Shown in pieces: positions 15,331-63,900 of a stretch of DNA of 64,000 nt. The stretch is taken from contig NC_057749.1 in the NCBI RefSeq assembly GCF_004010195.1, forward strand, positions 7,877,901-7,941,900, read 5' to 3'. Below the pieces are notes generated by a model. That model did no database searches and was not told the DNA's origin. It saw nothing but the letters and a program-made list of their open reading frames with translations. Position numbers and translations under genes: made by a program. Each line of letters begins with the position of its first letter. Positions within the stretch are counted from its first letter, which is position 1. Source of the stretch: Chiloscyllium plagiosum (taxonomy: Eukaryota).

Positions 15331-15462
15331 TGATTCCTGATGAAAAGCTTTTGCCCAAAACGTCGATTTTACTGCTCCTCGGATACTGCCTGAACTGCTG
15401 TGCTTTTCCAGCGCCTCTAATCCAGAATCTGGTTTCCAGCATCTGCAGTCATTGTTTTTACC
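15331..15462 (+). mobile_element. Short PLE pseudo-LTR copy (family A) with decayed HHR
   Basis: attcctgatgaaaagcttttgcccaaaacgtcgatt...ccagcatctgcagtcattgtttttacc; close to 33805-33935. Confidence 0.75.
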
Positions 15463-16651
15463 CATTTAGCATCCTTGGCAGTGATGCTCCTGACTTGAAA
15501 TCAAGGCCTCAACATAAAGTGCTATCAATTGACACATAGGCACCCATTTTTAAGACTTGAAAGATTGGAAGTTCAAAGGAGTATTATTGTGGCTGCAGCC
15601 TTTAGCAGTTTTGAACTTGTCCTCAAAATTTACAGCCAACTTTTTATTGAGTTTCTAAAGCCCATATGGCTAGCATTAATTTTTAATCAATGTCTCATCT
15701 ACAGCAAGCCATTGAATAGAATCAAGGCATTAGAAACTATCTTCTAATCACATGGACATAATTCTCCCTTTTCAACCATTCTTAACAAAAAGCATGTATT
15801 CATGTTAGTAGTTATCTGAGAACATCTCTAAACTGTTTTATTGCCAGGATTGTTAGTGTTTGGCTAACCAAACGATGCCTGAGAAACAATTAGGAGACAG
15901 CTGAGTTTTAAGGTGATGTATAAACATGGATTAAATGTCAAGAGTTTAAAATCTGCCACTTCCATTCACCAATATCCTCATGGGAATTATACAGGAGCCT
16001 GCTAGTGCAGTCTTAATTTCAATTTTACAAGCAGCAGTGATGGACAGCCCTCAGGGGAATCATTTCCTTAAAAAAATTTCCTTGTTACCTTCCTGCCCTG
16101 ATGCTTCATTACTCTGATGAACTAAAAGGCAATAAACCAAAAGTCTTAACTTCATAGAGGCGTGGGATTAGGAAATTATTCGGGCAGAAGCAAAGAACTT
16201 TTAACAAAACTCGGCATCAAGTCTGAGATCAAATCCAGAAGACGTTCTGCAGAAGAGTTATATCAGATTCAAAATGTTAAATCTGTTTCTCTCTCCACAG
16301 ATACTGCCAGAACTGAAGAGTTTATCCAGCATTGTCTTTGTTCGTTTCAGACTTCCAGCATCCACAGTATTTTTCTTCATCAAATCCAGGTACAGATCCA
16401 TCTGTCCCTCATTTATGCTGGATCATAAATTATATTACTTTCTGACCACACTCTGGGTGGAATCTCCAAAATCTGTGGTTAGAATCTGGAATGCACTCAC
16501 TGAGATTGTAATGAAGGCAAATTCAGTCAATGCTTTCAGAAGGAAATTGCGTACATTTCTGATGAGTAAGGATGTGAAGGTTCATGGGGAAAGGGCAGAG
16601 AAACGCAACTGGTTGAATTCTTCTAGCTCAGGGGCCAACATGCATTCACTG

Positions 16652-16797
16652 GCTGGCACGGTGGCTCAGTGTTTAGCACTGTTGCCTCACAGCATCAGGT
16701 TTGACTCCCCCCCTCGGGCAACTATCTGTGTTGAGTTTGTACCTTCTCCCAATGTCTGCTTGGGTTTCCGAGGTGCTCCGCTTTCCTCCCACAATGC
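16652..16797 (+). mobile_element. HE1-type SINE 5' part
   Basis: tRNA-like head ggcacggtggctcagtgtttagcactgttgcctcacagc followed by V-domain; interrupted by the CR1 copy, SINE 3' part resumes at ~17305-17480. Confidence 0.8.
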
Positions 16798-17290
16798 AGA
16801 AAGGGTTCAGAAATGATTTGTAAGGATGTTGCCAGAGTTGGAGGGTTTTTGCTACAGGGCGAGACCGAATAGGCTGAGGCTATTTTTCCTGGAGTGTTGG
16901 AGGCTGAAGAGTGACGTTGTAGAGGTATATAAAATCATGAGGGGCATGGATTAGGTAAATAGACAAGGTGTTTTTTCCCCCTGGGATGGGGGAGTCCAGA
17001 ACTAGAGCGCATAGGTTTAGGGTGAGAGAGGAAAAATTTAAAAGGGATTTAAGGTGCACCTTTTTCACGCAGAGGGTAGTGCATGTATGGAACGAGCTGC
17101 CAGAGAAAGAGGTGGAGGCTGGTACAATTACAATTTTTAAAAGACATCTGGATGAGTATAGGAATAGGAAGGGTTTAGAGGGATATGGGCCAAGTGCTGG
17201 CAAATGAGACTAGATTAATTTAGGATATCTGGTTGGCATGGATGAGTTAAACTGAAGAGTCTGTTTCTGTGCTGTACACCTCTATGACTC
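16795..17290 (+). mobile_element. CR1 LINE 3' fragment
   Basis: Translates as ESRTRAHRFRVREEKFKRDLRCTFFTQRVVHVWNELPE, followed by CR1 3' tail. Confidence 0.92.
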
Positions 17291-17737: not shown

Positions 17738-18476
17738 GGAGAAAGTGAGGACTGCAGATGCTGGAGAACCAGAGTTGAAAACTGTGGTGCTGGAAAAACA
17801 CAGCAGGCCAGGCAGCATCCGAGGAGCAGGAGAATCGACGTTTCAGGCATAAGCCCTTCTTCAGGAATGAGGCTGGTGTACCAAACGTACTGAGATAAAA
17901 GGTAGGGGTAAGGGAATTTGGGGGAGGGACACTGGCAATACGATAGGTGGAAGGAGGTGAGGGTGAGGGTGAGGGTGATAGGCTGGAAAGGGGGTGAGAG
18001 CAGAGAGGTTGGGAAGAAGATTGCAGGTCAAGAGGGCAGTGCTGAATCTGAGGGTTGGGACTGAGATAAGGTGGGGGGAGGGGAAATGAGGAAGCTGGAG
18101 AATGTAGAACGGGATTTCTCCAGCTTCATTTTTCCTCCTCCCACCTTATCTCAGTCCCAACCCTCAGTCAGCACCGCCCTCTTGACCTGCAATCTTCTTC
18201 CCGACCTCTCCGCCCCCACCCCTCTCCGGCCTATCACCCTCACCCTCACCCTCACCTTCTTCCATCTATCGTATACCTAGCGCCCCTCCCCCAAATTCCC
18301 TCACCCCTACCTTTTATCTCAGTACGCTTGGCACACTAGCCTCATTCCTGAAGAAGGGCTTATTCCTAGCGCACCTCCCCCCTACCTTTTATCTCAGCCC
18401 GCTTGGCACACCAGCCTCATTCCTGAAGAAGGCTTATGCCCAAAACATCAATTCTCCTGCTCCTCGGATGCTGCCT
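17738..18476. mobile_element. ~740-bp fold-back PLE-derived insertion (family A) with HHR motifs
   Basis: 15-bp TSD gtctcactgtgacta at 17723-17737 and 18477-18491; arms invert about ~18108. Confidence 0.85.
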
Positions 18477-19410
18477 GTCTCACTGTGACTACCCCTGGAG
18501 TAAAGCTGACAGTTTTGTTCTCATTAGCAAACTTGTCTCAGAGGGAGTGCAATGAAGGTTCACCAGAATGGTTCCTGAGATGGTGGGTTGTCTTTTGAAG
18601 AGACATGGAGGAGAATGTGCCAACATTCTCTCAAGCAGAGCATCCAATATTGGGGATCAGGACACAAGTGGAGCCTAGACTTGAAATTTTGCAGTCGCGG
18701 AGGAGGCCATTTGGCCCATCATGTTACAGTGGCTTGCAAAGAAAAATATGACTTAGTCACAAACCCCTGCTTTTTCCTCATACCCTTAACACATTGTCTC
18801 TATTCAAATACTCGTCCAATGTCTCTTGAATGCTTCAGTTGGACCTGTCTCCATCACACATCCAGGTAGTACACTCCAGACCCCAACAACTCATTGTGTG
18901 TAATCATAATTCACAAATCATTTGCTAATCACTTCAAATATGTGCCTTCTCATTCTCAATCATTTATGCTTCAGAATAGTTTCTCCCTATCCATCATGAC
19001 TTTAAAAGCTTCTATCATATCTCCTCATAACCTTCCTCTCTGAAAGGAGAACAGTCCCAACCTCTCCAATCTATCCTCATAGCTGAGGTTTCTCAATATT
19101 GGGACTACTTCAGTAAATCTCTTTTGCACTATCCAGCAGCACTTGCTCAGCAATAACCTGCTCACTAATGGTTAGTTTGGGTTCTGCTAGGGTTACTCAG
19201 CTCCTGACTTCATTATATCCATCAGTCCAAACATCGACAAAAGAACTGAGTTCCAGAGGTGAGAGTGACTGTCCTTGACGTCCAAATACATTTAACCGAA
19301 TGTGGAATCAAGGAGCCCAAATAAAACTGGAAAGACAAGAGGTGTACTTGTTGAAGGTCAGTTATCACAGCTCCAGTCACCTCTGCAGATTATCTCGAGA
19401 TAGTATCCTT

Positions 19411-19730
19411 ATAGGGCAAGCGAAACAAAGAACAGTCAGGGAATTCCTAGAAGCATGGCACTCATCCACAAACTCCATCAACAAACACATAGACCTGGAC
19501 CCAATATACCGGCCACTACAGCGGACAGCTGAAACTGACAACCGGAAGCGGCAGGGACAGGCCACTATAAATGCCGGAGGAAACACCACAGAAGCACTTC
19601 ACAGGAGGCTCCCAAGCACTGAGGATGTCACCTAGGCAGGGGACGAAACGTTTGCAACAAAAACTTCCAGCTCGGCGAACAGAACCACAGCAACGAGCAC
19701 CCGAGCTACAAATCTTCTCACAAACTTTGA
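19411..19730 (+). mobile_element. Penelope-like element 3' end (GIY-YIG C-terminus plus HHR)
   Basis: IGQAKQRTVREFLEAWHSSTNSINKHIDLDPIYRPL; 11-bp TSD atagtatcctt at 19400-19410 and 19731-19741; homologous to 43730-44050. Confidence 0.88.
19616..19655 (+). ncRNA. Minimal type-I hammerhead ribozyme motif
   Basis: gca CTGAGGA t gtcacc-taggca-ggggac GAAAC GT T tgc: helix I gca/tgc, helix II 5 of 6 bp, palindromic ACGT helix III, GUU site. Confidence 0.75.
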
Positions 19731-26605: not shown

Positions 26606-27099
26606 CAGTTTGGACATCGGCGCATATCCTTTGGACTTTAGCAGATTAAAATGTGTCCTTATTGAAACATATACAAACCTGAGAGGACACAATATTGAAA
26701 CATATACAAACTTGAGAGGACACAATAAAATGGATGGAGGAAGGATGTTTGCTCTTGTAGGAGAGACTAGAATGATGGGACACTGTTCAAATATAAGGAG
26801 CCATGCATTTAAGACAGAGATGAGGAAAATGCTTTTTCTCTCAAGACAGTCATGTGTCTGTAGGACTCTCTTCACCAGAGATCAGTGGAGAGAAATTAAT
26901 TGAAAATTTTTGTAGCAAGTTCAATAGATTGTTGACTGACCAGGTACTTAAAAGGTATCGGGCATGTGGTATTTGTGGGAGAAGGAGTTTTTAAAACAAT
27001 TGTTCATAGGATTTGGGTTGAGCTGGCTTGTCCATCATTTTTTTGGCCATCCCCAGTTGCAATGCACAAGATGGTGGTGAGCTTGATCTTCTTGATCTG

Positions 27100-27305
27100 A
27101 GTCGAAAAGTGTGGTGCTAGAAAAGCACAACCAGTCAGGCAGCATCCAAGGAGCAGGAGAGTCGATGTTTTGAGCATAAGCCCTTCATCAGGAATGTCAA
27201 AACATTGACTGTCCTGTTCCTCGGATGCTGCCTGACCAGCTGTGCTTTTCCAGCACCACACTTCTTGACTCTGATCTCCAGCATCTGCAGCCCTCACTTT
27301 CTCCC
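27100..27305. mobile_element. Fold-back PLE pseudo-LTR insertion (family A)
   Basis: Inverted arms about ~27195; TSD tcttctt(g/t)atctg at 27087-27099 and 27306-27318. Confidence 0.8.
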
Positions 27306-29715: not shown

Positions 29716-30472
29716 TGAATGAAAATCTGCCCTTTTAATCCTGCCTAGCCTACATGTGACTGTAGATCCACAGAAGTATCTTCAATTGCCCTCTAAATGC
29801 CCCTTCAAGCCATTCAGGTAAAAACATTTTGGGATGGACAGTGAGTGCTAGCCTTGCCAATGGTACTCTGATCCCAGGATTAAAAGTTAAGAAGCTATGC
29901 ACAGTTTGTGGTGATAGATGAAAGCGAGGGAGACAGGACATCTCCCTGTCTCTCTTCTGTATCATGTATTAAGACAATGCATAAAAATATTAACTCTACG
30001 CTTGATAGAGTTACAAAAGATTAAAACAGAAGGTGGCAGTGACTTGATTATTATTTAACTGGGCTGTCCTGTGCTCATTTCTAAAGTTGATGCCACTGTT
30101 GCAATGAAACTGAGAGTTCTGAGGAAGGGTAATCAGACTCAAAAGGTTAACTCTAAATTATCTCCACAGATGCTGCCAGACCTGCTGAGCTTTTCCAGCA
30201 ATTTCTGTGTTTTGTGTCTGATTTCCAACATCCAACCTTTCGCTTGCGGTTAAATTGACGGCTTAAGCTTGTAGCAAACTTTGTACAGCCAAAAACGTAA
30301 ACTACTCAGCATGTCTGGTAACATCTGTGGAGAGAGAAACGGAGTTAACGCTTCGAGTCCAGTGACAGAACTTTGTCAGGACTGAAAGCAACTGGGAAAA
30401 GGTGGTACTTCTGCTGATGACGGAGGGCGAGACTGTTGGGGTGGTGGTGGAAGGAGTGAAACGGACAGATGG

Positions 30473-31662: not shown

Positions 31663-31915
31663 GGACAAAGTGAGGACTGCAGATGCTGGAGATCAGAGTC
31701 GAGAGTGTAACACTGGAAAAGCACAGCAGGTCAGGCAGCATCCGAGGAGCAGGAGAGTCAATGTTTTGGGAATGAGCATTTCATCAGGAATTGGGCATAA
31801 ACCCTTCACTCCTGATGAAGGGCTTATGCCCGAAATGTTGACTCTCCTGCTTTTCGGTTGCTGTCCGACATGCTGTGCTTTTCCAGCGCCGTGCTTTTCC
31901 AGCTCCACACTTTTC
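31663..31915. mobile_element. Fold-back PLE pseudo-LTR insertion (family A)
   Basis: Inverted arms around 31790-31810; + strand ctgatgaagggcttatgcccgaaatgttgact at 31812. Confidence 0.8.
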
Positions 31916-31997
31916 AACATATCGGAAGTTACTGTCTTGCAAGTTTTTAACTTGAAATCCTAATTGCTAGAACTAAAGTAGGAAATATGATCATGTA

Positions 31998-32124
31998 GGT
32001 AAAAACAATGACTGCAGATGCTGAAAACCAGATATTGGGATTAGTGGTGCCGGAAGAGCACAGCAGTTCAGGCAGCATCCGAGGAGCAGTAAAATCGACG
32101 TTTCAGGTAAAAGCCCTTCATCAG
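31998..32124 (-). mobile_element. Single PLE pseudo-LTR copy (family A)
   Basis: TSD gatcatgta at 31989-31997 and 32125-32133; HHR motif at ~32093-32126. Confidence 0.82.
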
Positions 32125-32796
32125 GATCATGTAACTCTCTCCTTTGATTAGAATCAGTTCTGCCAGTTTGGGGTGATCTATTAGCCTACTTCAGCTTTGT
32201 ACTGTTCTAATATATTTCTGTGAAATATCTATAAACTTAAGCTTAGTTGCCCTTCTTTGTTTCAAATGAGATCCTCCCTTTCCCATCACTTTCCAAGAGA
32301 GTAATTGTGGTTAATACCTAATTCCATTATGCCCTCTTGAGAGTGCTGTTCTCCTGCACCAGAATTTTTAAAGGATGAGTGCCAAGGATGTGCTCAATTC
32401 GATGCATTTGTTTATATAACCCTCTACTGGAGGAAACAAAAACAAGGCTCTCGTTTCAATTCCAAGGCTAGGGGACGTAAGGGAGCCCTTAAGGCTCATT
32501 GTGTGATAGAACAATGCAAGTGGTCTTTGAATTTTGTCTTCTATCTGTTAATTAGGCCTCAATTGAAATGAACAAGGAGGTTCAAAGGGACAAGAGTCTG
32601 AATTCAAGACACATCAGCGTTCCTTCAATAAGGTATAAAAGAGAGGGAAAAGAAAATCAAGAATTAACAATTAGATTTGTACAGCTCGGAAACTGACCCT
32701 TTTCATCCAACTTGTCCATGCTGACCAGATATCCTAAATTAATCTAAATCTGTTTGCCAGCATTTGGCCCAAATCCGTCCAAACCCTCCTTATTCA

Positions 32797-33000
32797 TAGC
32801 AGGTCAGGCAGCATCCAAGGAGCAGCGAAATCGACGTTTTGGGCAAAAGCCCTTCATCAGGAATAAAAATATTCCTGAAGAAAGGCTTATGCCTGAAACG
32901 TCGATTCTCCTGTTCCTTGGATGCTGCCTGACCTGCTGCGCTTTTCCAGCAACACATTTTCAGCTCTGATCTCCAGCATCTGCAGTCCTCACTTTCTCCT
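32797..33000. mobile_element. Fold-back PLE pseudo-LTR insertion at the end of a minus-strand CR1 tail (32675-32797)
   Basis: ...cccttcatcaggaat aaaaat attcctgaagaaaggc...; inverted arms. Confidence 0.82.
32871..32906 (+). ncRNA. Minimal hammerhead ribozyme motif
   Basis: attc CTGAAGA a aggc-ttat-gcct GAAAC GT C gatt; intact core, GUC site, weak helix I. Confidence 0.7.
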
Positions 33001-33762
33001 CCTTATTCATATATTGTCGGAAAAACTCAGCCCAATGGAGCAAAGACCACAAACGAGGGTCATGGTGGAAATTGACAGGCGGTTTATTAAACACAGCGAT
33101 ATCGCGGAAGAGAAATTGACCAGGCTGACACAGAACTGATTCTCTGCACAGATGGCCCGAATGCTCTTCCCAGAACAGAAGGTGCATGCAGACTTTATAG
33201 GGGTACAACACAAAGGTGATAATTATCAAGCAGTTCCAGGACAATGGTGAAAATTGTAAAGTGATTAAAACAAAAATAAACTGAAGTTAATCAAGCATCC
33301 GGCAGTAGCAATTCATTTGTAATTGGCGCAGGAAATTCCAGCCATCTCCGTGGGTGGGTAAGAATGACTTCTAGAGGATTCTTCATTGTATTTCCCATTC
33401 GCGTGAATATGTATCAATCTCCCTTCTCCAGGCATTCAGGTGTGTCCATTGTGTTCCTCCTGCAAGCGAAGTCTTCTGGGGTCTCTCGGTCTGCCTCTTT
33501 GTTTATGCGGTATTGGTTTCAATGGGAAATGAGCCTATCCTTAGCATACTGGGACTGCAGTGCTAAACGGGGCTGGAAGCTTTACTGTGAAGGTTGTTTG
33601 TGAAGTATATTCTCTGGTCTGGGAATAGTTTGGCCGTGGTAACTAAAGTAGGAAATATGATCATGTAGGTAAAAACAATGACTGCAGATACTGGAAACCA
33701 GATTTTGGGATTAGTGGTGCTGGAAGAGCACAGCAGTTCAGGCAGCATCCAAGGAGCAGTGA

Positions 33763-33798
33763 AATCGACGTTTCGGGCAAAAGCCCTTCATCAGGAAT
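33763..33798 (-). ncRNA. Minimal hammerhead ribozyme motif
   Basis: Reverse complement reads attc CTGATGA a gggc-tttt-gccc GAAAC GT C gatt. Confidence 0.72.
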
Positions 33799-33804
33799 AT
33801 TTTT

Positions 33805-33840
33805 ATTCCTGATGAAGGGCTTTTGCCCGAAACGTCGATT
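33805..33840 (+). ncRNA. Minimal hammerhead ribozyme motif
   Basis: attc CTGATGA a gggc-tttt-gccc GAAAC GT C gatt; predicted cleavage 3' of C33836. Confidence 0.72.
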
Positions 33841-33974
33841 TCGCTGCTCCTTGGATGCTGCCTGAACTGCTGTGCTCTTCCAGCACCACTAATCCAGAAT
33901 CTGGTTTCTAGCCTCTGCAATCATTTTTTTTACCCCTACCTAATAGCTTGGCCATGTCTGGTTTGTTTGTTTGT

Positions 33975-34215
33975 TGAGAATGTGTTGCTGGAAAAGCATA
34001 GCAGGTCAGGCAGCATCCGAAGAGCAGGAAAATAGACGTTTCAGGCTAGAGGCCTTCATTAGGAATGAGGCTGGGCTGCCCAACTTCATTCCTGATGAAA
34101 GACTCCGGCCTGAAACATCGATCTTCCTGCTCCTTGGATGCTGCCTGACCTGCTGTGCATTTCCAGCACCACATTCTTAACTCTGGTCTCCAGCATCTGC
34201 AGACCTCACTGTCTC
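33975..34215. mobile_element. Fold-back PLE pseudo-LTR insertion (family A)
   Basis: Inverted arms around ~34078; decayed HHRs on both strands; flanked by tggtttgtt on both sides. Confidence 0.8.
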
Positions 34216-34374
34216 CTGGTTTGTTTGTTAGCCTGTTTGGGCAAGACTGGGGCATTGTGGTTGTGTTCTGTATGTGATGGCAGGATTGATTTCTGTGTTT
34301 TGCAGTCCAGCGTCTGTGCTTTTTTTTAATGCAGCCATACTGTGGGTGGACAGGGTAGCAGATCTTTTTCCTAC

Positions 34375-34835: not shown

Positions 34836-35039
34836 TTAGGCAAATACAAGATCTAAGCAGTTGGAGATTGCATGAGAAGGGTATATTTGTGTTGGGAGAA
34901 CTTGAGGCATTAGAAAGCAAGAGGAATTGTTTATTTTTATAACCTGTCTGAAACCCCGGTACCTTAACTTTAGCTGGGATATGTAAGTCCTATGCAATAG
35001 CATCCAATCAACAATGTAAGAACCCATCTATCACATTCA

Positions 35040-35175
35040 AAAACACAAACAGAAATTGCTGGTAAATCACAGCATCTGTGGAGCGAGAAAGCAGAGTTAA
35101 CGTTTTGGCTCCAGTGACCCTTCATCAGAACCGATGCTGAATTTCTGTTTGTGTTTCTGATTTCCTGCTTCCACA
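35040..35175 (-). mobile_element. PLE pseudo-LTR copy (family B) with HHR motif
   Basis: Reverse complement gtt CTGATGA a gggtc-actg-gagcc aAAAC GT T aactc; same family at 16243, 23980, 30112, 35945, 44400, 50785 and 62190. Confidence 0.7.
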
Positions 35176-35322: not shown

Positions 35323-35517
35323 TACGATTTGGAGATGGACTGGGGTGTACAAAGTTAAAAATCACGCAACACCAGGCTGTAGTCCAACAGGTTTAATTGG
35401 AAGCACTAGCTTTTGGAGTGTTGCTCCCGAACCACCTGATGAAGGAGCAGCGCTCCGAAAACTGGTGCTTCCAATTAAACCAGTTGGACGATAACCTGGT
35501 GTTGCGTGATTTTTAAC
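35323..35517. mobile_element. Palindromic HHR-bearing insertion (family D) in a Deu-type SINE tail
   Basis: Arms 35354-35427 and 35444-35517 are near-perfect inverted repeats; TSD att(g/a)aaaatg at 35313-35322 and 35518-35527. Confidence 0.8.
35432..35467 (+). ncRNA. Minimal hammerhead ribozyme motif, AGCU helix-III type (slightly mutated)
   Basis: cac CTGATGA a ggagc-agc-gctcc GAAA act g gtg; the opposite arm preserves aaagctagtg, implying consensus GAAAG CU A gug. Confidence 0.62.
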
Positions 35518-43414: not shown

Positions 43415-44050
43415 CAAAGACATACCAGAAATTATTTCCAAACTACTCAGACCTGTTGGCATCATGTTAGCCCACAAACTGATCAACATACTTAAACAGC
43501 GACTAATGAACCTAAAGGATTCATTAGATATTACCAGCAAAACTAACGTCATTTACAAAATACCATACAAGAACTGTAAAAATCATCAATACGTCCATCA
43601 AACAAGCAGGAAACTTGCCACCAGGATACATGAACACCAATTAGCCACCAAAAGACAGAACCCATTATTATTAGTTTCCATACATACAGACAAAGAGGAA
43701 CGCCACTTTGACTGGGGCAACACACACATCCTAGGACAGGTGAAATAAAGAAACTCATAAGAATTCTTAGAGGCATGGCATTCTAACCAGAACTACATTA
43801 ATAAATACGCTGACTGAGATCCCATCTACCTTCCCTTGAAAAAAAACTGGAAATGACATCACTCACCTTAAGGAACCAAGACCTATGATACAGAGGTGGG
43901 ACATACCACCAGGGCTTCACCGGAGACTCTCACTGATGATGTAACCTAGGCATGGTGACGAAACATCTGAAAACAAGCCTTCCAGCTCAGCAAGCTAACT
44001 TACATACTTATCATCAACCTGAGCTACAAGTCTTCTCAAAAATTGCTAAC
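43415..44050 (+). mobile_element. Penelope-like element 3' part: GIY-YIG endonuclease remnant plus HHR
   Basis: NVIYKIPYKNCKNHQYVHQTSRKLATRIHEHQLA...HFDWGNTHILG...EFLEAWHSN. Confidence 0.9.
43930..43970 (+). ncRNA. Minimal hammerhead ribozyme motif
   Basis: tca CTGATGA t gtaacc-taggcat-ggtgac GAAAC aT C tga; one probable CpG-decay change in helix III. Confidence 0.68.
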
Positions 44051-45462
44051 TATGCCTGTATCTGACCTGTAGGTAATAGACACTAGAACATGGAGACCTA
44101 CATTGGAAGAGTGGAGGGTACAAAAGGAGACAGACAGAGGAGACCACAGAGGTATAGGAAGTGTGAGATGGGTGGGAAGGTCCTGCATGGAATTAAACTT
44201 GCATTTGTAGTCGTAGTCATGCATTTTCAGCTGAACAACCTGGTGTAAAGCAAGTGTAGAGAAATGGCATGTCCTCGGGCAAATAGAAATACCCCCAATG
44301 GATTTCTTAGTAGTTTGCATTTGGAGATTCTTAAGCATTGTGTCTGGATTCCTTATTCTCAGCAAACCCCAGATAAAACAGCTGTAAACTAAGGGATCAA
44401 AAACAGAAATTGCTACCTCGGCTCAGCAGACCTGGCAGTATCTGTGGAGAGAAATCAAAATTAATAGACAAAGGGTTACTCGACCTGAAACGTTATCTCT
44501 GACTTCTCTCCAGAGATGCTGCCAGACCTGCTGAGCCAATCCAGAAATTTCTGTTTCTTGTTTCTGATTTAAAGCAGTTCTTTCAGTTTGTTTTAAGTAA
44601 GCTAAAGGATGTTTGATATCACTTTAAGAGCGATGCTTTGTGAAGAATATGACATGCGAATGAGCTAAGGGCTAGGATGTTATCACATGATTGGAAGCCA
44701 CAGTCACACCCTCAGACTGAGGATGTGTATATGGTTTGCTCCATGCTCCTGGATTAGTTTTAGATGTGAAGGACTTATATACACTTATATAACCTTAGGT
44801 TGCCTCAAATTGCTTTACATCTGTGTATTATTGAAGTGTAGTCTTTGCTGTAATGCAAGTGAAGAGTTAAAGTCTGTTACAGACTAATGTGCGACAGAAG
44901 ATGCTGGAGAAGCTCAGCAGGTTTGGCAGCAACAGTGGAGCGCAAAACATGGTTAATGTTTGAATCCAGTGTGATGCTTCTTTAGAATGCTATTACTTTA
45001 ATTATATTTATACTTATTAATAGAAGGAACATTCTGCTGTTGGGCAGAACTTCAGGTTTTTATAGGAATGCTTCCTTTGTTGCCAGTTTCAGTAACTTGG
45101 CCTTCTGTTGGCCTGCAAATAAAACTTTCAGAGCAGCTGGAGAGGACAGGAGAGGAAAAACAATGCTTCTTGCCTGATGGTGTGTCTTCATCACAGCCTA
45201 TTTTCTTTCCAAAGACAATGAAGTGATTGCTTTCTCTGAACTTGAACACACACTGTTTAAACTAAGTGGCTTCCTGTATCCACCAAAATGATTGTGAGTG
45301 GTATTTCACACCAGAAATCAAAGCACTTGTAAACGATTTCAAAACTGCAAAGGTTTCTTACTGAAACCTCTCCCAATCAGTGATGGCATGTTTTAGTTAT
45401 TCTTCTTTTGACTGTTGTCAAAGCAATAAGCAAAACAGATAGATATTCTATTGAAAGCTTTA

Positions 45463-50163: not shown

Positions 50164-50620
50164 GTGGCATGGTTGCTCAGTGGTTAGCTCTGCTCACAAC
50201 GTTAGGGAACCAGGTTCAATTCCAGCCTTGGGTGACTGTCTGTGTGAAGTTTGCACATTCTCCTCAAATATGAATGGATTACTGCCAGGTGCTCCAGTTT
50301 CCTCCCACAGTCCAAGGGTGTGCAAGTTAGGTGGATTAGGAGAAAGTGAGGACTGCAGATGCTGGAGACCAGAGTTGAAAAATGTGGTGCTGGAAAAACA
50401 CAGCAGGTCAGGCAGCATCTGAGGAGCAGGAGAATCGACGTTTCGGGCATAAGCCCTTCTTCAGGAAGTTAGGTGGATTGGCCATCGGGCACCTGCAGGC
50501 TCGGTGGATTAGCCATAGTAAATATCAGGCTACTGAGATAGGGTGGGGCCTGTGGGATGCTGTTTGTAGGATTGGTGCAGGACCTGATGGGCAGAATGGC
50601 CTCTTTCTGCTCTGTAGGAA
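50164..50620 (+). mobile_element. HE1-type SINE interrupted by a PLE pseudo-LTR
   Basis: tRNA head and V-domain at 50164-50337; remainder after 50466. Confidence 0.85.
50338..50465 (-). mobile_element. Single PLE pseudo-LTR copy (family A) with intact HHR core
   Basis: TSD aagttaggtggatt at 50324-50337 and 50466-50479; minus strand ttc CTGAAGA a gggc-ttat-gccc GAAAC GT C gatt. Confidence 0.85.
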
Positions 50621-52124: not shown

Positions 52125-52230
52125 AGAGAGAAAATGCTGGAAAATCTCAGCAGGTCTGGCAGCATCTGTAAGGAGAGAAAAGAGCTGATGTTTCGAGTCT
52201 AACTGACCCTTTGTCAAAGCTTTTATCCAG
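52125..52230 (-). mobile_element. PLE pseudo-LTR copy (family C) inserted in a CR1 tail (52038-52475)
   Basis: 16-bp TSD cattattctagcccca at 52109-52124 and 52231-52246. Confidence 0.82.
52183..52221 (-). ncRNA. Variant hammerhead motif with U3-A8 core
   Basis: agct TTGACAA a gggtc-agtta-gactc GAAAC aT C agct. Confidence 0.58.
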
Positions 52231-54841: not shown

Positions 54842-55019
54842 AGTTCTTGTACATCTCACATTATACGAAAATCCAGCAATAGCAGCGCCACTTAAACTAA
54901 TGGGGCTGGAATTGGTGTTGTAGAGAGTACAGGTAAAGAATTTTGTGTTCTACAAGCAATGGTCTAAATTCTTCATTAAAATCAATTTGTGTTGGAGAAG
55001 CTCCTCTTACAGCAGAAGC

Positions 55020-55657: not shown

Positions 55658-56104
55658 ACTACTCCTTACTTTTTGTTCTATAATATTCATGTCATAAAAA
55701 CCTTTCTCTCAGCAGGTGAACAATATTTCTAACACTCTCCCTTTGACTCTTGCTCAATTCATGCAGTCCATAGTCTTAAGAGTATACGTACATAACATCG
55801 CACAATTTCTTTAAAAGCATATTAAGCTGCTCCCTCTTATGAATTTCACCATACATGAAGATAGAAGGCGAAAGTGAGGACTGCACTACTCCTTACTTTT
55901 TGTTCTATAATATTCATGTCATAAAAACCTTTCTCTCAGCAGGTGAACAATATTTCTAACACTCTCCCTTTGACTCTTGCTCAATTCATGCAGTCTTAAG
56001 AGTATACATACAGAACATCGCACAATTTCTTTAAAAGCATATTAAGCTGCTCCCTCTTATGAATTTCACTATACATGAAGATAGAAGGCGAAAGAGAGGA
56101 CTGC
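55658..56104 (+). repeat. Tandem duplication, 227 bp + 220 bp
   Basis: actactccttactttttg... starts at 55658 and 55885; the second copy lacks 7 bp. Confidence 0.95.
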
Positions 56105-56216
56105 AGATGCTGGAGATTAGAGTCAAGATTAGAGTGGTGCTGGAAAAGCACAGCAGGTCAGGCAGCATCTGAGGAGCAGGAAAATCGACGTTTCAGGCAG
56201 GAGCTCTTCATCAGGA
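56090..56216 (-). mobile_element. Single PLE pseudo-LTR copy (family A)
   Basis: TSD aagat(a/g)gaaggc at 56078-56089 and 56217-56228; HHR motif at ~56183-56217. Confidence 0.82.
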
Positions 56217-56559
56217 AAGATGGAAGGCTGACAGTCACCTGTTACAGACTTTGCCAGGTTGACGTCTTGGTCAGCATGGCCAATGTTCAGCCATGGTGAT
56301 AAATGGAACTCACTGAATAGAGGCAGGACCTTCTGCAGTTACTGCCTCAGAACGACTGCCTGATCACCCTCCAGCAGTCCTTTACAAGACCTTAGAAACA
56401 TAATTCACCCACATCGTATTCCTTGCTCTGTTCTATCATTCTTTGATCTTTGTATGGTATGATCTACCTGTATTGCACACAAAACAAAACTTCTCACTGT
56501 ACTTAGGTACATGCAACCATAATAAATCAAATCAAAATTTGTTCTCCTGCAGGCAATCA

Positions 56560-57314: not shown

Positions 57315-59740
57315 GGCAGTACAGCACAAGAACAGACCCTTCGGCCCACCAAGCCTGCGCCGACACATGACACTTTTTAAAAGTAAAATCCTTTTGCCTC
57401 TACACAGTCCATATCCCTCTATTTGAATATCTGTTAAGATTCCTCTGAAACATTGCTACTGCTCCTCTGGCAGCCCATTCCAGGCACTTAGCACCCTCTA
57501 TGTAAAATACATGCCTCTCACATCTCCTTTAAACTTACCCCTTTTACGTTAAATCTGTGGGCTCAAATAACTGGGAAAAAGACTCCAATGACTCAGTCTC
57601 TCATAATATGGTAAATTTCTGTTAGGTTGCTTTTCTATAACATTCAAGTGAAAACAAATCAAGTTTGTCCAATCTCTCCTCAACCAGGCAACATCCTGGT
57701 AATCCATTCCTATATCCTTTCCATAGCCCAATACAATATTCCAGATGTGGCTTTACTAAACACTATCTGCCATTTCTCCTCCCAAGTCTCCAGTCTATCT
57801 ATCTCCTGCTGTATCCTCTGGCAATCCTTCTCATTATCCGCAGCTCCCCTAGTCTTTCAGTCATTCACAACTTACTGATTAGGCTAACTACATGGTCCTT
57901 CAAATCATTTATATATATTACAAGCAAAAATCTAATCTAATCTAATCTAATCCCAGCACTAATTCCTGCAGAACACCACTGGTCACAGATCTCCAGTCTG
58001 AAATCCACGCCCCCCTCCACTGCTACTCTGTCTTCTATAACTAAACTAATTCTGTATCCATCATACTAGCTCACTGCAGATCCTATGTGACTTCACCTTT
58101 ATATCAGGGACCTTGTCTAAGGCCTTGCCAAAGTCCCCATAGGCAACATCCACTGCCCTCATTGTCCCTTCCTCAAAAAGCTCAATCAAGGTTGTGAGAA
58201 ATGGGCTTCCCTTCACAACACCCTGCTGCCTATCACTAATAAGTCCATATTTTTTCCAAATGTGAGTCAATTCTACCCCTAAGAATTTTCTCCAATATTT
58301 CCCTACCACTGATGTAAAGCTCACGGGCCTGTCATTTCCTGGATCATTCCTGAAGAAGGGCTTATGCCCGAAACATCGATTCTCCTGTTCCTTGGATGGC
58401 TGCCTGACCTGCTGCGCTTTTCCAGCAACACATTTTCATTTCCTGGATTATCCCTTCTGAAAGAAAGTAACAACATTGGCTACTCTTCAACCCCCTGGAA
58501 CTTCTCCTGTGACTAAAGAGGATACAACGATTTCATACAAGGCCCCAGCAATTTCCTCACCTGCCTCCCTCAGCATTCTGGGATAGACCCCATCCGGTCT
58601 GGGGACTTGTCTACCTTAATGCTTTCCAAAACAGCCACCACCACCTCCCTTTTTATATTGACTCGCCCCAGATGATCAACATGCCCGCCCCAAGATTCAC
58701 GATCCACCATGTCCTTCTCCTTTGCGAATATCGATACAAAGGATTTGTTAAGGACCTTGCCCACTTCCTCTGGCTTCACGCATAAATTCCCTCCTTTGTC
58801 CTTGAGTGGACTTAACCTTTCCCTAACTACCCTCTTGTTCCTTATATATGTATAAAATGCCTTGGGATTTTCCTCAATCTTGTTTACCAAAGATATTTCC
58901 TTAGCCCTCCTAAGTCGTTGTTTGAATTCTTCCCTGTTACCTTTATATTTTTTGAGGACTCTGTCTGTCTTCAGTTTCCTAAACCTTGTATTTGCCTCCC
59001 TTTTCTTCTTGATGAAGCTCTTAATATTTCTTGTCATCTAAGGTTCCTGAAACTTGCAAACTCTATCCTTCATTTTCACGAGAACATGCCAGTCCTGAAT
59101 TCGACTGGCCTTTAAAAGATTCCCACATGCCAGATGTGGATTTACCCTCAATAGCTGTCCTCAATTTACATTTCTGCCTGTATTATGGTTGTTAGGTTTC
59201 TTCCAATTTAATATTTTCACCCGAAGGCCACATTTAAGTAATCTAAAACTTACAGAATTATGGTCACTATTCCCAAAATGCTCCCCCACTGAAACTTTGA
59301 TCACCTGGCTGGGCTCATTCCCCAATACCAGGTCTAGTAAGGCCCCTTCCCTAATTAGACTATCTCCATACTGTTTCTAAAAACTCTGACCTGGGCACGC
59401 TTAACAAATCCTTTTGCCCCCATCCAAGCCCTTGACACTAACCCAGTTAGTACAGGGGAAGTTAAAATCATCAAATCACAACAACCCAGTTCTTTTTACA
59501 TTTTCCATAATCTGTACACATATCTGTTCCTTTATCATGAACTCACTAAATGTGCTATCTACCACATTCACAGCCTCATGGATGCTCCATAGTGAGTCCA
59601 TCCACTGCTCCCGGTGCTCCATCTGGTAAATCAGACGATGCAGCTGAACACACTTTCTGCATTTGGAGTCACCACAGAGACCACAAGTGACTCTGATTTC
59701 CCTGTATTCCACAGGGCTGAGTTCTCCTGCCATTGTGAAC
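57315..59740 (-). mobile_element. Older CR1 LINE with internal deletions (ORF1 zinc-finger/coiled-coil remnant, endonuclease, linker, RT, 3' end)
   Basis: CGLCGDSKCRKCVQL...MDSLWSIHE; KIEENPKAFYTYIRNKR...IKVDKSP; DRQQG...DFGKALDKVP. Confidence 0.88.
58345..58435 (+). mobile_element. Short PLE pseudo-LTR copy (family A) with HHR motif
   Basis: TSD tcatttcctggat at 58332-58344 and 58436-58448; attcctgaagaagggcttatgcccgaaacatcgatt. Confidence 0.82.
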
Positions 59741-61177: not shown

Positions 61178-61495
61178 ATTGAATCCCTACACTGTGAAAG
61201 TAGGCCATTCAGCCCATCAAGTCCACACCAACCCTCTAAAGAGCATTCTACCCAGACCCACCTCCCTACCCTATCCCTGTAACCCTGCATGTCCCGTGGC
61301 CAATCCACCCATCCTGCACACAATGGGCAATTTAGCACGGCCAATTCACCTAACCTGTACAACTTTGGGCTGTGGGATGAAACCCACACAGATACGGGGA
61401 GATTGTGCAAACCCCACACAGACAGTCACCCGAGAGTGGTATCAAACCAAGATCCCTGGCACTGTGAGGCAGTACCACTAACCACTGAGCCACTG
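61178..61495 (-). mobile_element. HE1-type SINE (older); an internally deleted + strand copy lies at 61803-61885
   Basis: gggcaatttagcacggccaattcacctaacctg...; tRNA head at the right end. Confidence 0.85.
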
Positions 61496-63660
61496 CTCAG
61501 GATGGCAGGATGCCATGATACTGTTATGGTACAATGTGATGCAGCTTGACAACATATTTACATTTGAGAATTTGTGTTCGAAGTTAGACGAAAAATTCAT
61601 TTTAGCTTTCAGTTCTGTGAGGGTCTGACTTGTGTTCTTTTTAAAGGTCAGAAAGTATATTTTAACATTCAGTTTAAAACAGCATCTATGATAAGTCATG
61701 TGGTTTCAATTAAATAATTAGCAGCTCACCCAGGGAGATAATGGTTTGTGTGCTTGCATGCTTGGGTTTTAGAGAGATAGAGAACAATCCTCTGTTGTTA
61801 GTGGGTGGCACATTGGCACAGTGGTTAGCACTGCTGCCTCACAGCGCCAGAGACCCGGGTTCAAGTAATCTAATCTAATCTAATCTTTCAGTTTTCAGTC
61901 TGAGCTGGGGAGAATTTCTGAAAGGCTTGGAAAGCAGGGAAAAGGTCCAGAAGCAGACGTCTGTGGAGATGTCAGATAGGGGGGCACTTTACAAGGCTGT
62001 TGAAGGTATGGGTTTAGGAAACCATGTTAAGGAGTAATAGTGAGCTGAATTAGTATTTATTTCAAAAGTCTTGAGGGGAGACATTAATCAAAGAAAAATA
62101 GTATCAAAAGAATGCACAGAAAATTACTGAAAGAAACTGGTTATAGCCATGCCAACTAAGCAAGGAACTTTCAAATAAAAGCAAAACACTGCAAATGCTG
62201 GAAATTTGAAGCAAATAGAAATTGTGGAGCAATTGAGCAATTAAGGCAGCAAATGACCCTGCTGAGTTTTTCCAGCATTTTCTGTGTTTAAAACAAACAA
62301 CTTCAATATGGAGGTGAGGCAACCCTTCATTGACGTTTGAATGTTTGTAAAGATATCTTTCAGATAAAAAGGACAAATTCTGGACTCTTTCTTTCTGATG
62401 TTTGGAATGAGATCCTTCCAATAGTTTTTATATCTTGAGGTATACTTTGTGCTTTTCGTTTGTGCAGTACACTTTTATGTTCTTTTGCTAAAAGTACATT
62501 GGCAGCCTCTTGTGAACATGTCTTGCCACCTTTCACTCTGGGATTTGACTTGGCCAGTGTTATCTTCACATAAGATCACAACAACAAGATGAACTAAATC
62601 TGCCTGAAATTGCTATACATTACCCTGCAATACTTCAATTCTTGCATCAGACAAGCTAAGAATGCTTTTCCAAGTTGAGTTGGAGGGGAGACCAATCTTG
62701 AATTGGGGTCAGGAAGACTTTCTTTACAGAAAAAGAGGCCATTCCAAGTTGGAGTAATGGAGTTGCAAGCATCAGATTCATTCAGTTTGTGGAATTAATT
62801 AGCTCCTTTCAGCTTTCTTCCTGGATGTTTGGATTCTGAAGGTTAAATAGTTTTCTCATTTGTATGCATTCCCTGGTCTAACAAACAGCAAAAAAGGAAG
62901 CTATCACCTTTTATTCCCTTTGACATGTTTGAGTGCCATGGTTAAATATGAACAAATATTCAAATCTCTGGCCTGTGCTGCTTGAATCTTTCTGTATGGT
63001 CCAATGTATATCAGACTCAAAATCAACTTGACACATCATATTTTTCCCTTTTCTTATTTAGTAAAGAGTGTTGCGATCTTCTACTTTTCACCAATATTTC
63101 AATCATATAACAAAGACTGATAAACAGTAATGCCAATTGTTTTATGTGAAGATAGATGTAATATTAATTGAAGGTATCTAGGCATGGCTGACTTCTTTGA
63201 GTGCTGCTCTGTTCTGGGGCAGAGTCATGGGAGTATTCATATCTTACCTCAAAGTGTGTTATAGCAGTTTAAGGTATGCTTCATAAAGATGCATGACAAG
63301 AAACAATTCTACCTGCTGGAAATACCTGCCAGATGTATGGTCGTGGACAAGATCAAGTTTATCAGCCACACAAGGACCCACAGAATCCACAACCAATGAC
63401 AGAATTTCCAAGGTGGACAATCATTGATTGACAATGACATAAGGTACATGCACGTCAAATTGCAACATTAGGCATGAAATTGGCCATGTGCAGTGACAAT
63501 ATTGGACTTGTTTTGGCACCCATAATATATCACTATTTCACTGAAATCAAAAGACATGACTCTGGGCCAGAATGTGTAACAAGCATTCTGTACGAGACAG
63601 CATTCATATCCATATCTAATTTCACCCCAATACAGATCTACATTGTGTCCTATTACAGGT

Positions 63661-63900
63661 AAGAGAAAGTGAGGACTGCAGATGCTGGAGATCAGAGTCA
63701 AAACATGTGGTTCTGGAAAACCACATCTGGTTAGGCAGCATCTGAGGACCAGGAGAGTCAATGTCTCGAACATAAGCTCTTCATCAGGGATGAAGAAGCT
63801 CTTCATTCCTGATGAAGAGCTTATGCTTGAAAAGTTGACTCTCCTGCTCCTCATTGCTGCCTAAATGGATGCTCTTTAAAGTGCCACACTTTTTGACTCC
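63661..63900. mobile_element. Fold-back PLE pseudo-LTR insertion (family A)
   Basis: ...gctcttcatcagggatgaag aagct cttcattcctgatgaagagc...; inverted arms with decayed HHRs. Confidence 0.8.

Follow-up and report, generated by a model that had tools for sequence, protein, structure and literature searches.

The window analysed here, 64,000 nucleotides of the Chiloscyllium plagiosum genome, contains 30 recognisable remnants of a hammerhead ribozyme motif (Table 1). These comprise the matches to a covariance model trained on A- and B-type seeds (23 at E≤0.001 in the window), four weaker relatives, and the D and E motifs. Both catalytic boxes are intact in 15 of the 30, and a box is broken in the other 15, commonly by G12>A at a CpG. 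An earlier note on this DNA had counted about 20 motifs, a fair figure given these numbers, and all 13 of the sites it listed carry the motif at, or a few bases from, the place where it put them. Its five families resolve instead into three sequence-unrelated lineages: A/B/C, which have a common tail, D, and E. Local-alignment z scores between lineages run from -0.4 to 1.9, with one pair at 4.2.

Lineages A-D are non-coding units of 90-135 nt in which the hammerhead occupies the 5′ edge and is followed by a tail of ~60-100 nt; D is present as a single copy with a truncated partner. The two E copies are 3′ ends of Penelope-like elements (PLEs). The A family is very abundant, in line with the earlier note: a single 130-nt A copy was matched by 93,737 pieces of contigs from one DNA run.

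Table 1. Hammerhead-bearing insertions and related copies in the window (HH, hammerhead; TSD, target-site duplication; CM, covariance model)
Feature	Position	Strand	Remarks
A-type unit	15330..15450	+	HH 15330-15372, G12>A; 8-bp TSD AGTCATTG
Old B-type unit	16241..16364	+	both boxes decayed; CM E=0.15
Two inverted long A copies, head to head, one insertion	17738..18478	.	13-bp TSD CTCACTGTGACTA
Left arm of 17738..18478	HH 17829-17871	-	intact; full tail; ~235 nt non-coding upstream
Right arm of 17738..18478	HH 18416-18457	+	decayed; partial duplicate 18341-18368; tail 3′-truncated
E1, 5′-truncated PLE 3′ end	19279..19726	+	C-terminal frame 19279-19635; HH 19616-19655; box 1 19619-19625; extra U 19626; GAAA 19645-19648; predicted cut between 19652 and 19653
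A-type inverted pair	27087..27304	.	- arm HH 27156-27198 (G12>A); + arm 5′-truncated inside motif
B-type unit	30112..30235	+	HH 30112-30156; helix I 6 bp; G12>A
Decayed B-type unit	30305..30386	-	CM E=3.9
A3 inverted pair	31663..31911	.	HH 31752-31794 (-, decayed), 31805-31847 (+, boxes intact)
A2 unit	32010..32132	-	HH 32089-32131, boxes intact
A inverted pair	32795..33000	.	HH 32825-32867 (-, G12>A), 32868-32910 (+, intact, A-U closing pair)
Young A2 inverted pair	33668..33934	.	arms 92.5% alike; HH 33759-33801 (-), 33802-33844 (+), both fully canonical
A inverted pair	33973..34217	.	HH 34027-34069 (-, box 1 mutated), 34085-34127 (+, boxes intact, helix II weakened)
B-type unit	35037..35135	-	HH 35091-35135, G12>A
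D hairpin, 170 nt	35351..35520	.	arms 82% alike; right arm (+) HH 35429-35473
A-type pair	37296..37436	.	both arms 5′-truncated, within or beyond HH
A-type inverted pair	38116..38339	.	+ arm HH 38239-38280 (boxes intact, helix II weak); - arm truncated
E2, 5′-truncated PLE 3′ end	43401..44042	+	GIY-YIG-type frame remnant; HH 43930-43970; box 1 43933-43939; extra U 43940; predicted cut between 43967 and 43968
B-type inverted pair	44399..44570	.	each arm truncated in or before box 1
Intact A1 unit within tRNA-derived SINE	50338..50467	-	HH 50429-50471; predicted cut between 50437 and 50436; 12-bp TSD GTTAGGTGGATT
C-type unit within LINE 3′ end	52127..52220	-	box 1 decayed; 22-bp TSD, 2 mismatches
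A unit	56086..56221	-	boxes intact; 10-bp TSD, 1 mismatch
A1 unit	58342..58438	+	boxes intact; ACGU>ACAU; tail 3′-truncated; TSD ~12 bp
A3 inverted pair	63660..63902	.	HH 63752-63794 (-, GAAA>GAGA), 63802-63844 (+, boxes intact)

Frequency and hallmarks of the motif

The hammerhead motif is confirmed, at a frequency far exceeding chance. With a loose descriptor (CTGANGA, 0-1 nt, a stem of ≥3 bp, GAAA) 11 distinct sites were found, compared with a mean of 0.97 (maximum 4) in 200 dinucleotide shuffles. When palindromic NN, U and H were added, the resulting strict descriptor found 7 sites against 0.055 expected (maximum 1) in dinucleotide shuffles of the window. No site in the whole window matched an Rfam hammerhead model at the gathering score, and the 47 Rfam matches at E≤10 in 15000-64000 were all to hairpin-type miRNA, snoRNA or other models.

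The motifs agree feature by feature, as the earlier note had supposed, with the minimal hammerheads of metazoan PLEs as these are characterised in PMC4209133. Four published hallmarks were all found in the window: A9 is followed by one extra nucleotide, G10.1 pairs with C11.1, a palindromic CG/GC stands where helix III would be, and the helices covary. The first of these, an unpaired nucleotide between A9 and 10.1, is treated as diagnostic by Cervera & De la Pena (PMC4209133), and exactly one nucleotide separates A9 from helix II in 15/15 motifs with intact boxes, this nucleotide being U for E and A for the remaining lineages. Further traits given in PMC4209133 are shared with the motifs here: the CUGANGA and GAAA boxes are arranged in a type I layout, helix III is absent with a palindrome at 15.2-16.2, helix I is short (2 bp in D. 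virilis), each genome has many covarying families, most copies are single, dispersed and read as truncated PLEs, and opposite-strand pairs lie 100-700 bp apart. Two differences are that helix II of the shark A family has only 4 bp, versus the 6-8 bp typical of PLE hammerheads in that account, and that most shark units begin within ~9 nt of box 1, unlike those described there.

Individual families fit their earlier descriptions to varying degrees. In B the motif is present, but the proposed gggtc..gaccc stem is literal in neither copy, both having G12>A and an imperfect helix II. The C motif is likewise recognisable, with its box 1 decayed to TTGACAA. D retains both boxes, a 5-bp helix II, and a helix I of 3+3 bp flanking a C.C mismatch; the palindrome and NUH triplet ascribed to it are absent, since positions 15.2/16.2/16.1/17 read AC-U-G. 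Its left arm, an inverted copy truncated inside the motif, reads GC-U-A. Both E motifs were found as described except for one helix II mismatch in E2.

Conservation and covariation

Across the lineages the boxes are constant and helix II varies in compensatory fashion, with stems of GGGC/GCCC (A), GGGUC-type (B/C), GGAGC/GCUCC (D) and GUCACC/GGGGAC (E), and with 2, 3 and 4 pair types at helix II positions 10.2 to 10.4. Among A/B/C copies helix II is 86.7% paired and has a covariation score of 0.240, compared with 0.180 in shuffles (0/500 reach 0.240) and ≤0.113 in slid controls. For helix II this agrees with the proposal that the core is conserved while the helices differ yet stay paired. The excess core conservation that the earlier note had named as a check was also observed: in A-type copies, identity is 0.992 in non-CpG core columns versus 0.863 in other non-CpG columns (one-sided Mann-Whitney p=1.3e-5). 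Helix I is weaker, 55.8% paired overall in the A/B/C alignment test, and in A it consists, as had been noted, of 2 bp, a mismatch and 1 bp. Among the 44 matches to the A+B-trained covariance model at E≤10 only A/B/C copies were found, and D and E were absent; the link between lineages therefore comes from the descriptor and from position, not from profile score.

Lineage E and its PLE reading frames

Each E hammerhead is in sense orientation and sits exactly where one PLE reading frame (RT then GIY-YIG) ends and the next starts. The upstream frame has 85-87% identity over 78 residues to Chiloscyllium proteins, and one of these, P0011 (precomputed Pfam RVT_1), shares its last residue, which places the stop TAG (19633-19635 in E1) in hammerhead loop 2. 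The next-unit frame of E1 starts at 19571, and its second in-frame AUG (19625-19627) is formed by A9-U-G10.1, 25 nt before the predicted cut. Running through the hammerhead, this frame matches residues 1-52 of an RVT_1 protein of 656 aa at 92% identity. The E2 remnant is open from 43401 to 43748 and then accumulates stops; it is 67% identical to shark RT+GIY-YIG proteins, aligning to a weak GIY-YIG stretch of these RT-bearing proteins. Similarity between E1 and E2 stops near 19724. The best protein matches come from Chiloscyllium, Stegostoma and Hemiscyllium, in keeping with the shark origin that had been deduced from the letters.

Lineage E derives from an autonomous element, which the earlier note, in calling the system non-autonomous, did not mention. 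That term does fit A, given the ~235-300 nt of non-coding sequence upstream in one long copy. The proposed PLE origin has a physical link to a reading frame in 2/30 motifs, both E; for A-D the argument is architectural and goes part of the way. No PLE reading frame adjoins any A-D copy in the window, no autonomous partner for A-D was found there, and the one long RT that the window does contain (40492-41646) shows no relationship to the PLE protein (E=4.2).

Insertion architecture of lineages A-D

Target-site duplications of 8-22 bp flank 6/6 insertions examined, as expected of the retroposed dispersal that had been proposed, and at least 10 head-to-head pairs are joined by their hammerhead ends. 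These inverted partners and duplications of A-D are PLE-style insertion. The wider link of A-D to PLEs, built on a hammerhead 90-130 nt from the 3′ end, inverted 5′-truncated partners and variable target-site duplications, is only partly supported. In the long pair at 17738..18478, ~300 nt of non-coding sequence, including the partial duplicate, precedes the right-arm hammerhead. The ORF in this insertion has no Pfam match, and the 235-300 nt of upstream sequence indicate that the parent A element was longer than the usual 130-nt unit.

Could A-D be SINE-like units moved by another retrotransposon, such as the abundant LINE of the window, with a captured or convergent hammerhead? The missing PLE frame beside A-D copies, the ~235-300 nt of non-coding sequence upstream in the long A copy, and the presence of a LINE RT and many LINE 3′ ends would suit this explanation, and LINEs too make variable target-site duplications. 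Against it, A-D tails are dissimilar to the 3′ end of the window's LINE, and the units lack any poly(A) or microsatellite tail. Pairs that meet head to head at their 5′ ends within one target duplication are a PLE signature in the description of PMC8557442 and are atypical for a LINE. The ~90-135 nt from hammerhead start to 3′ end in A-D is also on the scale of PLE-linked E (~110 nt). We regard movement by a LINE as very unlikely.

The pattern of truncation bears on which strand is sense. Most copies with a tail end but no hammerhead stand alone, and most of those with a hammerhead but no tail end are the second arm of a pair, a pattern consistent with RNA sense on the strand that carries the hammerhead. 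Were the opposite strand sense, GGGC-loop-GCCC would serve as the 3′ stem-loop in a LINE/SINE tail of the stringent type, and the hammerhead would be coincidental. Read on the opposite strand, many copies do end in ...TCAGGAA(TGAGG), superficially like a LINE tail, and Rfam does not see the hammerhead. However, solitary truncated copies have lost the hammerhead end, and this counts as 5′ truncation only with the hammerhead strand as sense. In E the motifs share their strand with the PLE coding frame, and three unrelated lineages agree in 11 core nucleotides as well as in the extra nucleotide and the palindrome, at a strict expectation of 0.055 per window. We consider the opposite-strand reading scarcely credible.

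Reads at the predicted cut

In raw polyA single-cell RNA reads (run X9), which are a poor test of cleavage, we found no molecule ends and no depth dip at the predicted cut of the A1 copy at 50338..50467. The copy drew 2,471 reads in both directions, 2,466 of them partial, with depths over three bins of 632/590, 567/542 and 477/389. A second RNA run from the same sample (X10) had 0 reads on this copy. No two complete same-strand units occur in tandem in the window, and a head-to-tail joint was present in only 7 contigs of one DNA run.

The cut site without read ends or dip would be expected if these were PLE-type elements whose hammerhead-like core serves a purpose other than self-cleavage, such as binding protein or folding RNA, and is a ribozyme fossil and not a working ribozyme; for E, the core might be kept because two overlapping reading frames cross it. 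The near absence of helix I in A and the coding of the E hammerhead in two frames point the same way, as does published work. Dimers have low activity in vitro (PMC4209133), and the function has been called "still unclear", with hammerheads that "may simply parasitize PLEs" (PMC8557442). For PAc, an Anolis carolinensis PLE of the Poseidon clade (Frangieh et al. 2024, PMC11167929), catalytic mutants are reported to leave insertion unchanged, the RNA to stay uncleaved without protein and, as for the shark element, no RNA-seq reads to begin or end at the cut. On the other side, polyA single-cell reads are ill suited to detecting cleavage, and the non-coding A-D units keep the catalytic nucleotides, G10.1-C11.1 and the NUH triplet (D excepted for the triplet) under no coding constraint. 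PAc truncated at its 5′ end to +20, with box 1 lost, still inserts, so that a pure RT-binding role of the boxes is not supported. On balance a fossil core seems to us unlikely.

Discussion

We put at roughly 85% the probability that the motifs are 3′-terminal modules of PLEs and of short non-coding elements that copy PLE architecture. The module is a minimal type-I hammerhead, with no real helix III, a palindromic CG/GC and one extra nucleotide after A9, followed by a tail. The interpretation in the earlier note is upheld in part.

PAc offers the closest comparison for E, although PAc has been studied biochemically and shark E is known from its sequence. According to PMC11167929, its hammerhead too lies at the ORF/pLTR junction, with an AUG where stem II begins and the cut ~25-26 nt later, and its insertions likewise end ~100 nt into the ORF start region. 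The shark element differs in that the stop codon of the preceding frame is inside hammerhead loop 2 and that the NCBI gene model uses an in-frame AUG 18 codons upstream; the two E frames therefore overlap across the ribozyme. Reverse transcription of PAc starts internally and requires the first 172 nt of the ORF, and each of the two target strands is cut and extended, consistent with the shark inverted pairs (PMC11167929). By analogy with PAc, the tail may be where the element's reverse transcriptase binds and begins copying at the nicked target. Inverted pairs would arise when the two strands of the target are both cut and extended, or when the cDNA snaps back, and heavy 5′ truncation would mean that most remains consist of a hammerhead plus tail. 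Cleavage by the hammerhead is probably no more than weak and would take place in an intermolecular or tandem dimer via the ACGU/AGCU palindrome and/or with the element's protein; it would then trim multimeric transcripts. Published work describes PLE hammerhead cleavage as weak and, in vitro, not required for insertion (PMC4209133, PMC11167929); dimer cleavage is also credited to Lunse, Weinberg & Breaker (cited in PMC6765202).

Other short elements share some of these traits. Animal non-LTR retrozymes (Cervera & De la Pena 2020, PMC7229834; Li, Clavereau & Pollet 2026 preprint, 10.64898/2026.07.22.740005) are likewise short non-coding units with a type I hammerhead and dispersed monomer "solo" copies; they are argued to stem from PLE pLTRs and are reported in one chondrichthyan genome. 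Retrozymes are, however, defined by tandem repeats that yield circular RNA, and the shark window has no complete same-strand tandem. The SINE-like Sm-alpha and Sj-alpha of Schistosoma and newt satellite 2 (PMC6765202, PMC6155905) are also dispersed or repeated short non-coding elements with a type I hammerhead whose weak helix III calls for a dimer. The hammerheads described there are canonical, make loop-loop contacts and have a true though short helix III; unlike the shark units, Sm-alpha carries a pol III promoter and satellite 2 is arranged in tandem.

PLE minimal hammerheads are recorded from fishes, coelacanth, Xenopus and reptiles (PMC4209133), and our literature search found no paper linking a hammerhead ribozyme with shark taxa. 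Most copies in the window have decayed, chiefly at CpG, and nearly all are dead relics. The motifs described here are a known class of PLE hammerhead, now in a carpet-shark genome.

Hammerhead motifs in the window and their decay

Both strands of the window were searched with a loose descriptor of the minimal hammerhead (CTGANGA followed by 0-1 nt, a looped stem of ≥3 bp and GAAA) and with a strict one that added a self-complementary dinucleotide, U and a non-G residue. The loose descriptor recovered 11 distinct sites, against a mean of 0.97 (maximum 4) in 200 dinucleotide-preserving shuffles of the window; the strict descriptor recovered 7, against a mean of 0.055 (maximum 1) in 200 such shuffles. 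All 13 sites listed in the earlier note carry a hammerhead motif. A profile of the commonest family, A, marked 35 stretches, and our own covariance model, trained on 11 hammerhead segments of families A and B, gave 23 matches at E ≤ 0.001. These 23 matches, with four weaker relatives, the D motif and the two E copies (E1 and E2), make up 30 recognisable remnants.

In 15 of the 30 remnants both boxes are intact and stand in type I order around the helix II hairpin, which has a contiguous stem of at least 3 bp in 11 of the 15. Eight of the 15 broken-box remnants read AAAA for GAAA, a G12>A change at the C11.1-G12 CpG, and the ACGU palindrome is frequently seen as ACAU or AUGU. These changes are ordinary CpG decay of dead copies. 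Judged from their sequences, the B, C and D copies in the window are probably not competent.

Rfam (release 15) gave no match over the whole window at gathering score, and none of 47 matches at E ≤ 10 in 15000-64000 belongs to a hammerhead family. Three sites could have been read as miRNA or snoRNA genes on the strength of sub-threshold Rfam matches. These sites are long inverted retroelement pairs, at which plant and animal miRNA precursor models score no higher than 107.7 bits (gathering score 168), and we rejected that reading.

Positions in the window of the features discussed in the text
Feature	Position	Strand	Remark
E1	19279-19726	+
E1 reading-frame remnant	19279-19632	+
E1 stop codon	19633-19635	+	TAG
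E2	43401-44042	+
E2 reading-frame remnant	43401-43748	+
E hammerheads in overlapping frames	19571-19655, 43930-43970	+
Intact A1 copy	50338-50467	-	predicted cut between 50437 and 50436
Head-to-head A pair	17738-18478		within a single 13-bp duplication
Partial duplication	18341/18416		75 nt
Cluster of A-type units	31400-34500		ten of about twenty units within 2.7 kb
Long inverted retroelement pairs	17999-18214, 27115-27255, 33762-34056
LINE reverse transcriptase	40492-41646	+	degraded; continues to ~42200
LINE C-terminal coding end and 3′ UTR	e.g. 12442, 17057, 23274, 27572, 34368, 41937, 42201		recurs at least 7 times
tRNA-derived SINE	50170-50337		family of ~170 nt
Other SINE copies	e.g. 54662, 48002, 45467, 21322, 22673, 30993, 26425, 61343		at least 8 places
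Tandem satellite, two blocks	3633-4284, ~5203-8300		32-bp period, >80 copies in register, ~80% identity

Three lineages with one catalytic core

Local alignments with shuffle controls joined families A, B and C through a common tail (z 13-31). Comparisons of D and E with A/B/C and with each other gave z values of -0.4 to 1.9, apart from one between subfamily A2 and D that reached 4.2 in the box region only. The five families proposed earlier are thus three independent lineages, A/B/C, D and E, the first with several subfamilies. In the window the covariance model trained on A and B recovered neither D nor E and offers no means of joining the lineages.

Constant across the lineages are the eleven core nucleotides, a single extra nucleotide after A9 and the palindrome. 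The extra nucleotide, unpaired between A9 and position 10.1, is present in 15 of 15 intact motifs, as A in lineages A-D and as U in E; with the strict descriptor, 7 sites contain it versus 2 without, the latter being other ways of reading sites already among the 7. The 10.1-11.1 pair is G-C in D, E1 and E2, and in 23 A/B/C rows it is GC in 11, GU in 6, AU in 3, another combination in 2 and a gap in 1; the departures from G10.1-C11.1 are C>T-type decay. Positions 15.2-16.2, U16.1 and H17 read CG-U-C or CG-U-U in A, B and E1, with CA or TG at 15.2-16.2 where the CpG has decayed; the full D copy reads AC-U-G and its partner GC-U-A. Helix III is absent.

The stems differ. Helix II is GGGC/GCCC in A, GGGUC-type in B and C, GGAGC/GCUCC in D and GUCACC/GGGGAC in E, and helix I measures 2(+1), 4-6, 3+3 or 3 bp. 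Positions 10.2-10.4 of helix II show 2, 3 and 4 pair types between lineages, D and E being represented by only 1-2 copies each. A single helix II mismatch is present in E1 and another, at a different position, in E2, both positions being paired in the other copy; position 3 of helix I differs between E1 and E2 in a compensatory manner (G-C versus U-A). In A/B/C, pairing amounts to 86.7% in helix II and to only 55.8% in helix I. Both partners have changed in 6 of 10 pairs, and a covariation score of 0.240 was reached by none of 500 shuffles (mean 0.180) and by no slid control (≤0.113), which is supportive but no proof, because the copies share descent. The excess of core over flank conservation, by which the earlier note proposed to judge the motif, is found in A-type copies, where identity is 0.992 in non-CpG core columns, compared with 0.863 in the remaining non-CpG columns (p=1.3e-5) and 0.901 in the best-preserved stretch of the tail (p=1.4e-4).

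Every sequence feature published for minimal hammerheads of Penelope-like elements (PLEs) is found in the window, and a location within a PLE is found for E only. Cervera & De la Pena (PMC4209133) describe four features that go beyond their own descriptor, namely covariation-rich consensus families, one unpaired nucleotide between A9 and 10.1, a conserved G10.1-C11.1 pair and a palindromic 15.2-16.2. Helix I is short there (2 bp in D. virilis), copies are mostly single and dispersed, opposite-strand pairs lie 100-700 bp apart, the hosts include fishes, coelacanth, Xenopus and reptiles, and activity is low even as dimers. Our literature search found no paper pairing a hammerhead ribozyme with shark taxa; a 2026 preprint (10.64898/2026.07.22.740005) reports tandem retrozymes in one chondrichthyan. 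The motif is the known PLE minimal hammerhead, as the earlier interpretation had it essentially right in kind, and its occurrence in a carpet shark is undescribed in the searchable literature.

Lineage E lies at the junction of a Penelope-like element

E1 and E2 are both located at the end of a reading-frame remnant, on the sense strand. The E2 frame is 67% identical to zebra-shark proteins in which RVT_1 is followed by a GIY-YIG match at 15-18 bits, below the 22.6-bit cut-off, and this weak GIY-YIG stretch aligns to ...VIYKIP...RKLATRIHEH... in the window. The order of domains in these homologues fits an EN+ PLE, with GIY-YIG sub-threshold, and the window holds only a C-terminal remnant, without a Pfam match of its own. 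In E1, the last 78 residues are 85-87% identical to bamboo-shark proteins. One of these proteins, P0011, with a precomputed RVT_1 assignment, ends at exactly the last residue of the E1 frame, which places the E1 stop codon in loop 2 of the hammerhead. A second E1 frame runs through the hammerhead and shares 92% identity with the first 52 residues of a 656-aa RVT_1 protein. Within this frame an in-frame AUG is formed by A9, the extra U and G10.1, and the predicted cut falls 25 nt after this AUG.

The E-type hammerhead is read in two overlapping frames: the preceding one ends ...LPSTEDVT-stop, with its TAG in loop 2, and the next, MPEET...ALRMSPRQGTKRL..., crosses the boxes and stems. Placement of the start codon in the hammerhead has been published for PAc, the Poseidon-clade PLE of Anolis carolinensis, and E is alike in this respect; for the overlap with the stop of the previous frame, we found no description in those parts of the PLE hammerhead literature consulted. 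Given the frame evidence and the PAc precedent, lineage E represents a tandem-type PLE junction, its "tail" being roughly the initial 100 nt of the next frame. The earlier idea of a non-autonomous system stands only in part: it fails for E, which descends from an autonomous element and lies across two reading frames.

Six NCBI bamboo- or epaulette-shark host gene models (P0006, P0007, P0009, P0013, P0017 and P0018) contain stretches 62-83% identical to the PLE fragment. They include isoforms of MAP3K7, CUEDC2, NUDT6, NT5DC1, EYA3-like and WBP2-like, and the stretches are probably retroelement pieces annotated as exons.

Among 12 ORFs of the window, only the two pieces of the LINE reverse transcriptase match Pfam, as RVT_1. 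This is the only long reverse transcriptase present, and it does not resemble P0008, the shark PLE protein (E=4.2); we regard it as a LINE, presumably CR1-like from its motifs, and as no part of the PLE finding. Neither it nor P0008 gave an informative result in searches of PDB sequences. N runs lie near the satellite blocks, with 1,366 N in the window.

Short units inserted singly and in inverted pairs

In a self-comparison of the window, the A motif occupies the first 40 nt of a ~130-nt unit; the B, C and D units measure 90-125 nt. Target-site duplications of 8-22 bp occur at all 6 insertions whose flanks were examined, which indicates that the units were inserted singly by a staggered-cut, reverse-transcription type of mechanism. 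The units lack poly(A). One of the examined insertions, that of the intact A1 copy, sits in a tRNA-derived SINE and another in a LINE 3′ end. For the 28 non-E remnants, resemblance to PLEs is architectural only (duplicated target sites, the inverted 5′ partners and the spacing from the 3′ end).

At least 10 units form head-to-head inverted pairs joined at the hammerhead end. In the pair listed in the table, non-coding sequence upstream of the hammerhead extends for ~235 nt in one arm and ~300 nt in the other, including the partial duplication, so the parent of family A exceeded the usual stump in length. Among truncated copies, the solitary ones retain the tail and have lost the hammerhead end, and those with a hammerhead but no tail end mostly form the second arm of a pair. 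Both patterns make the hammerhead strand the sense strand of the RNA and put its 3′ end at the tail. On this polarity and the coding strand of E, we rejected a reading of the units as antisense LINE tails.

Most A copies in genome and transcriptome extend ~5 nt (CCTCA on the hammerhead strand) past the 5′ end of the intact A1 copy and then diverge. Unit 5′ ends thus pile up 8-9 nt upstream of box 1, despite the longer parent. At one read joint a truncated copy starts exactly at 50436, on the predicted cut; it is one among many different truncation points, and we gave it no weight.

Non-LTR retrozymes are defined by at least two successive tandem units, each of which has a complete hammerhead; among the 23 covariance-model matches, same-strand pairs at unit spacing were absent. 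The nearest case in the window is the partial duplication, and head-to-tail joints occur elsewhere in the genome, in 7 contigs of a DNA run (X5). The cluster of A-type units consists of separate insertions; as a higher-order tandem array it was rejected, since only element-level similarity was found, and it would fit PLEs inserting into or beside earlier copies.

Transcripts and copy number

We matched the intact A1 copy, at ≥90% likeness, to ~13 million records of raw polyA single-cell RNA with the same species label (X9). Among 2,471 matching reads, 2,466 match only partly, in both directions and with almost none on the flanks, so the A family is embedded in many transcripts. There is no position in the A1 copy where X9 molecules begin or end, and depth is smooth across the predicted cut; for a library of this type, the absence of such ends is weak evidence against cleavage, and for PAc likewise no cleavage ends are reported. 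A second RNA run of the same sample (X10) gave no read matching the A1 copy. In X5, 93,737 pieces match it, a crude sign of very high copy number.

Discussion

The A-D units and the PAc and E elements are alike in layout and scale, but the A-D units lack a reading frame. For PAc, PMC11167929 reports that reverse transcription starts internally, that the ORF cannot do without its first 172 nt, and that both target strands are cut and extended. By analogy, we infer that the A-D units may use the same machinery as PLEs.

Non-autonomous elements tend to retain only cis requirements. We consider, with a probability of about one in four, that families A, B and C, and perhaps D, are a SINE-like parasite of shark PLEs that is hyper-abundant and retains just two modules, a hammerhead and a tail that would serve for reverse-transcriptase entry. 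If this tentative reading is true, the intact catalytic core in three unrelated lineages would indicate that PLE-type retrotransposition depends on the hammerhead in vivo, in contrast with its dispensability in vitro. The 5′ ends within ~9 nt of box 1 would then mark processing, or a reverse-transcriptase stop tied to the folded ribozyme.

Recognising the units would improve annotation, since Rfam overlooks them and predicted isoforms of shark host genes probably incorporate them. Cleavage by PLE hammerheads is weak, and in vitro it is dispensable. For the role of the hammerhead in PLEs, shark genomes provide a natural experiment of unusual size, with many diverged families, including short non-coding ones free of coding constraint, that all keep the catalytic core; of interest is that the core is kept even in such putative parasites and that their 5′ ends cluster at the ribozyme edge. 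A genome-wide census could show which nucleotides are kept by source elements, which autonomous element drives each parasite, and whether unit ends relate to the ribozyme.
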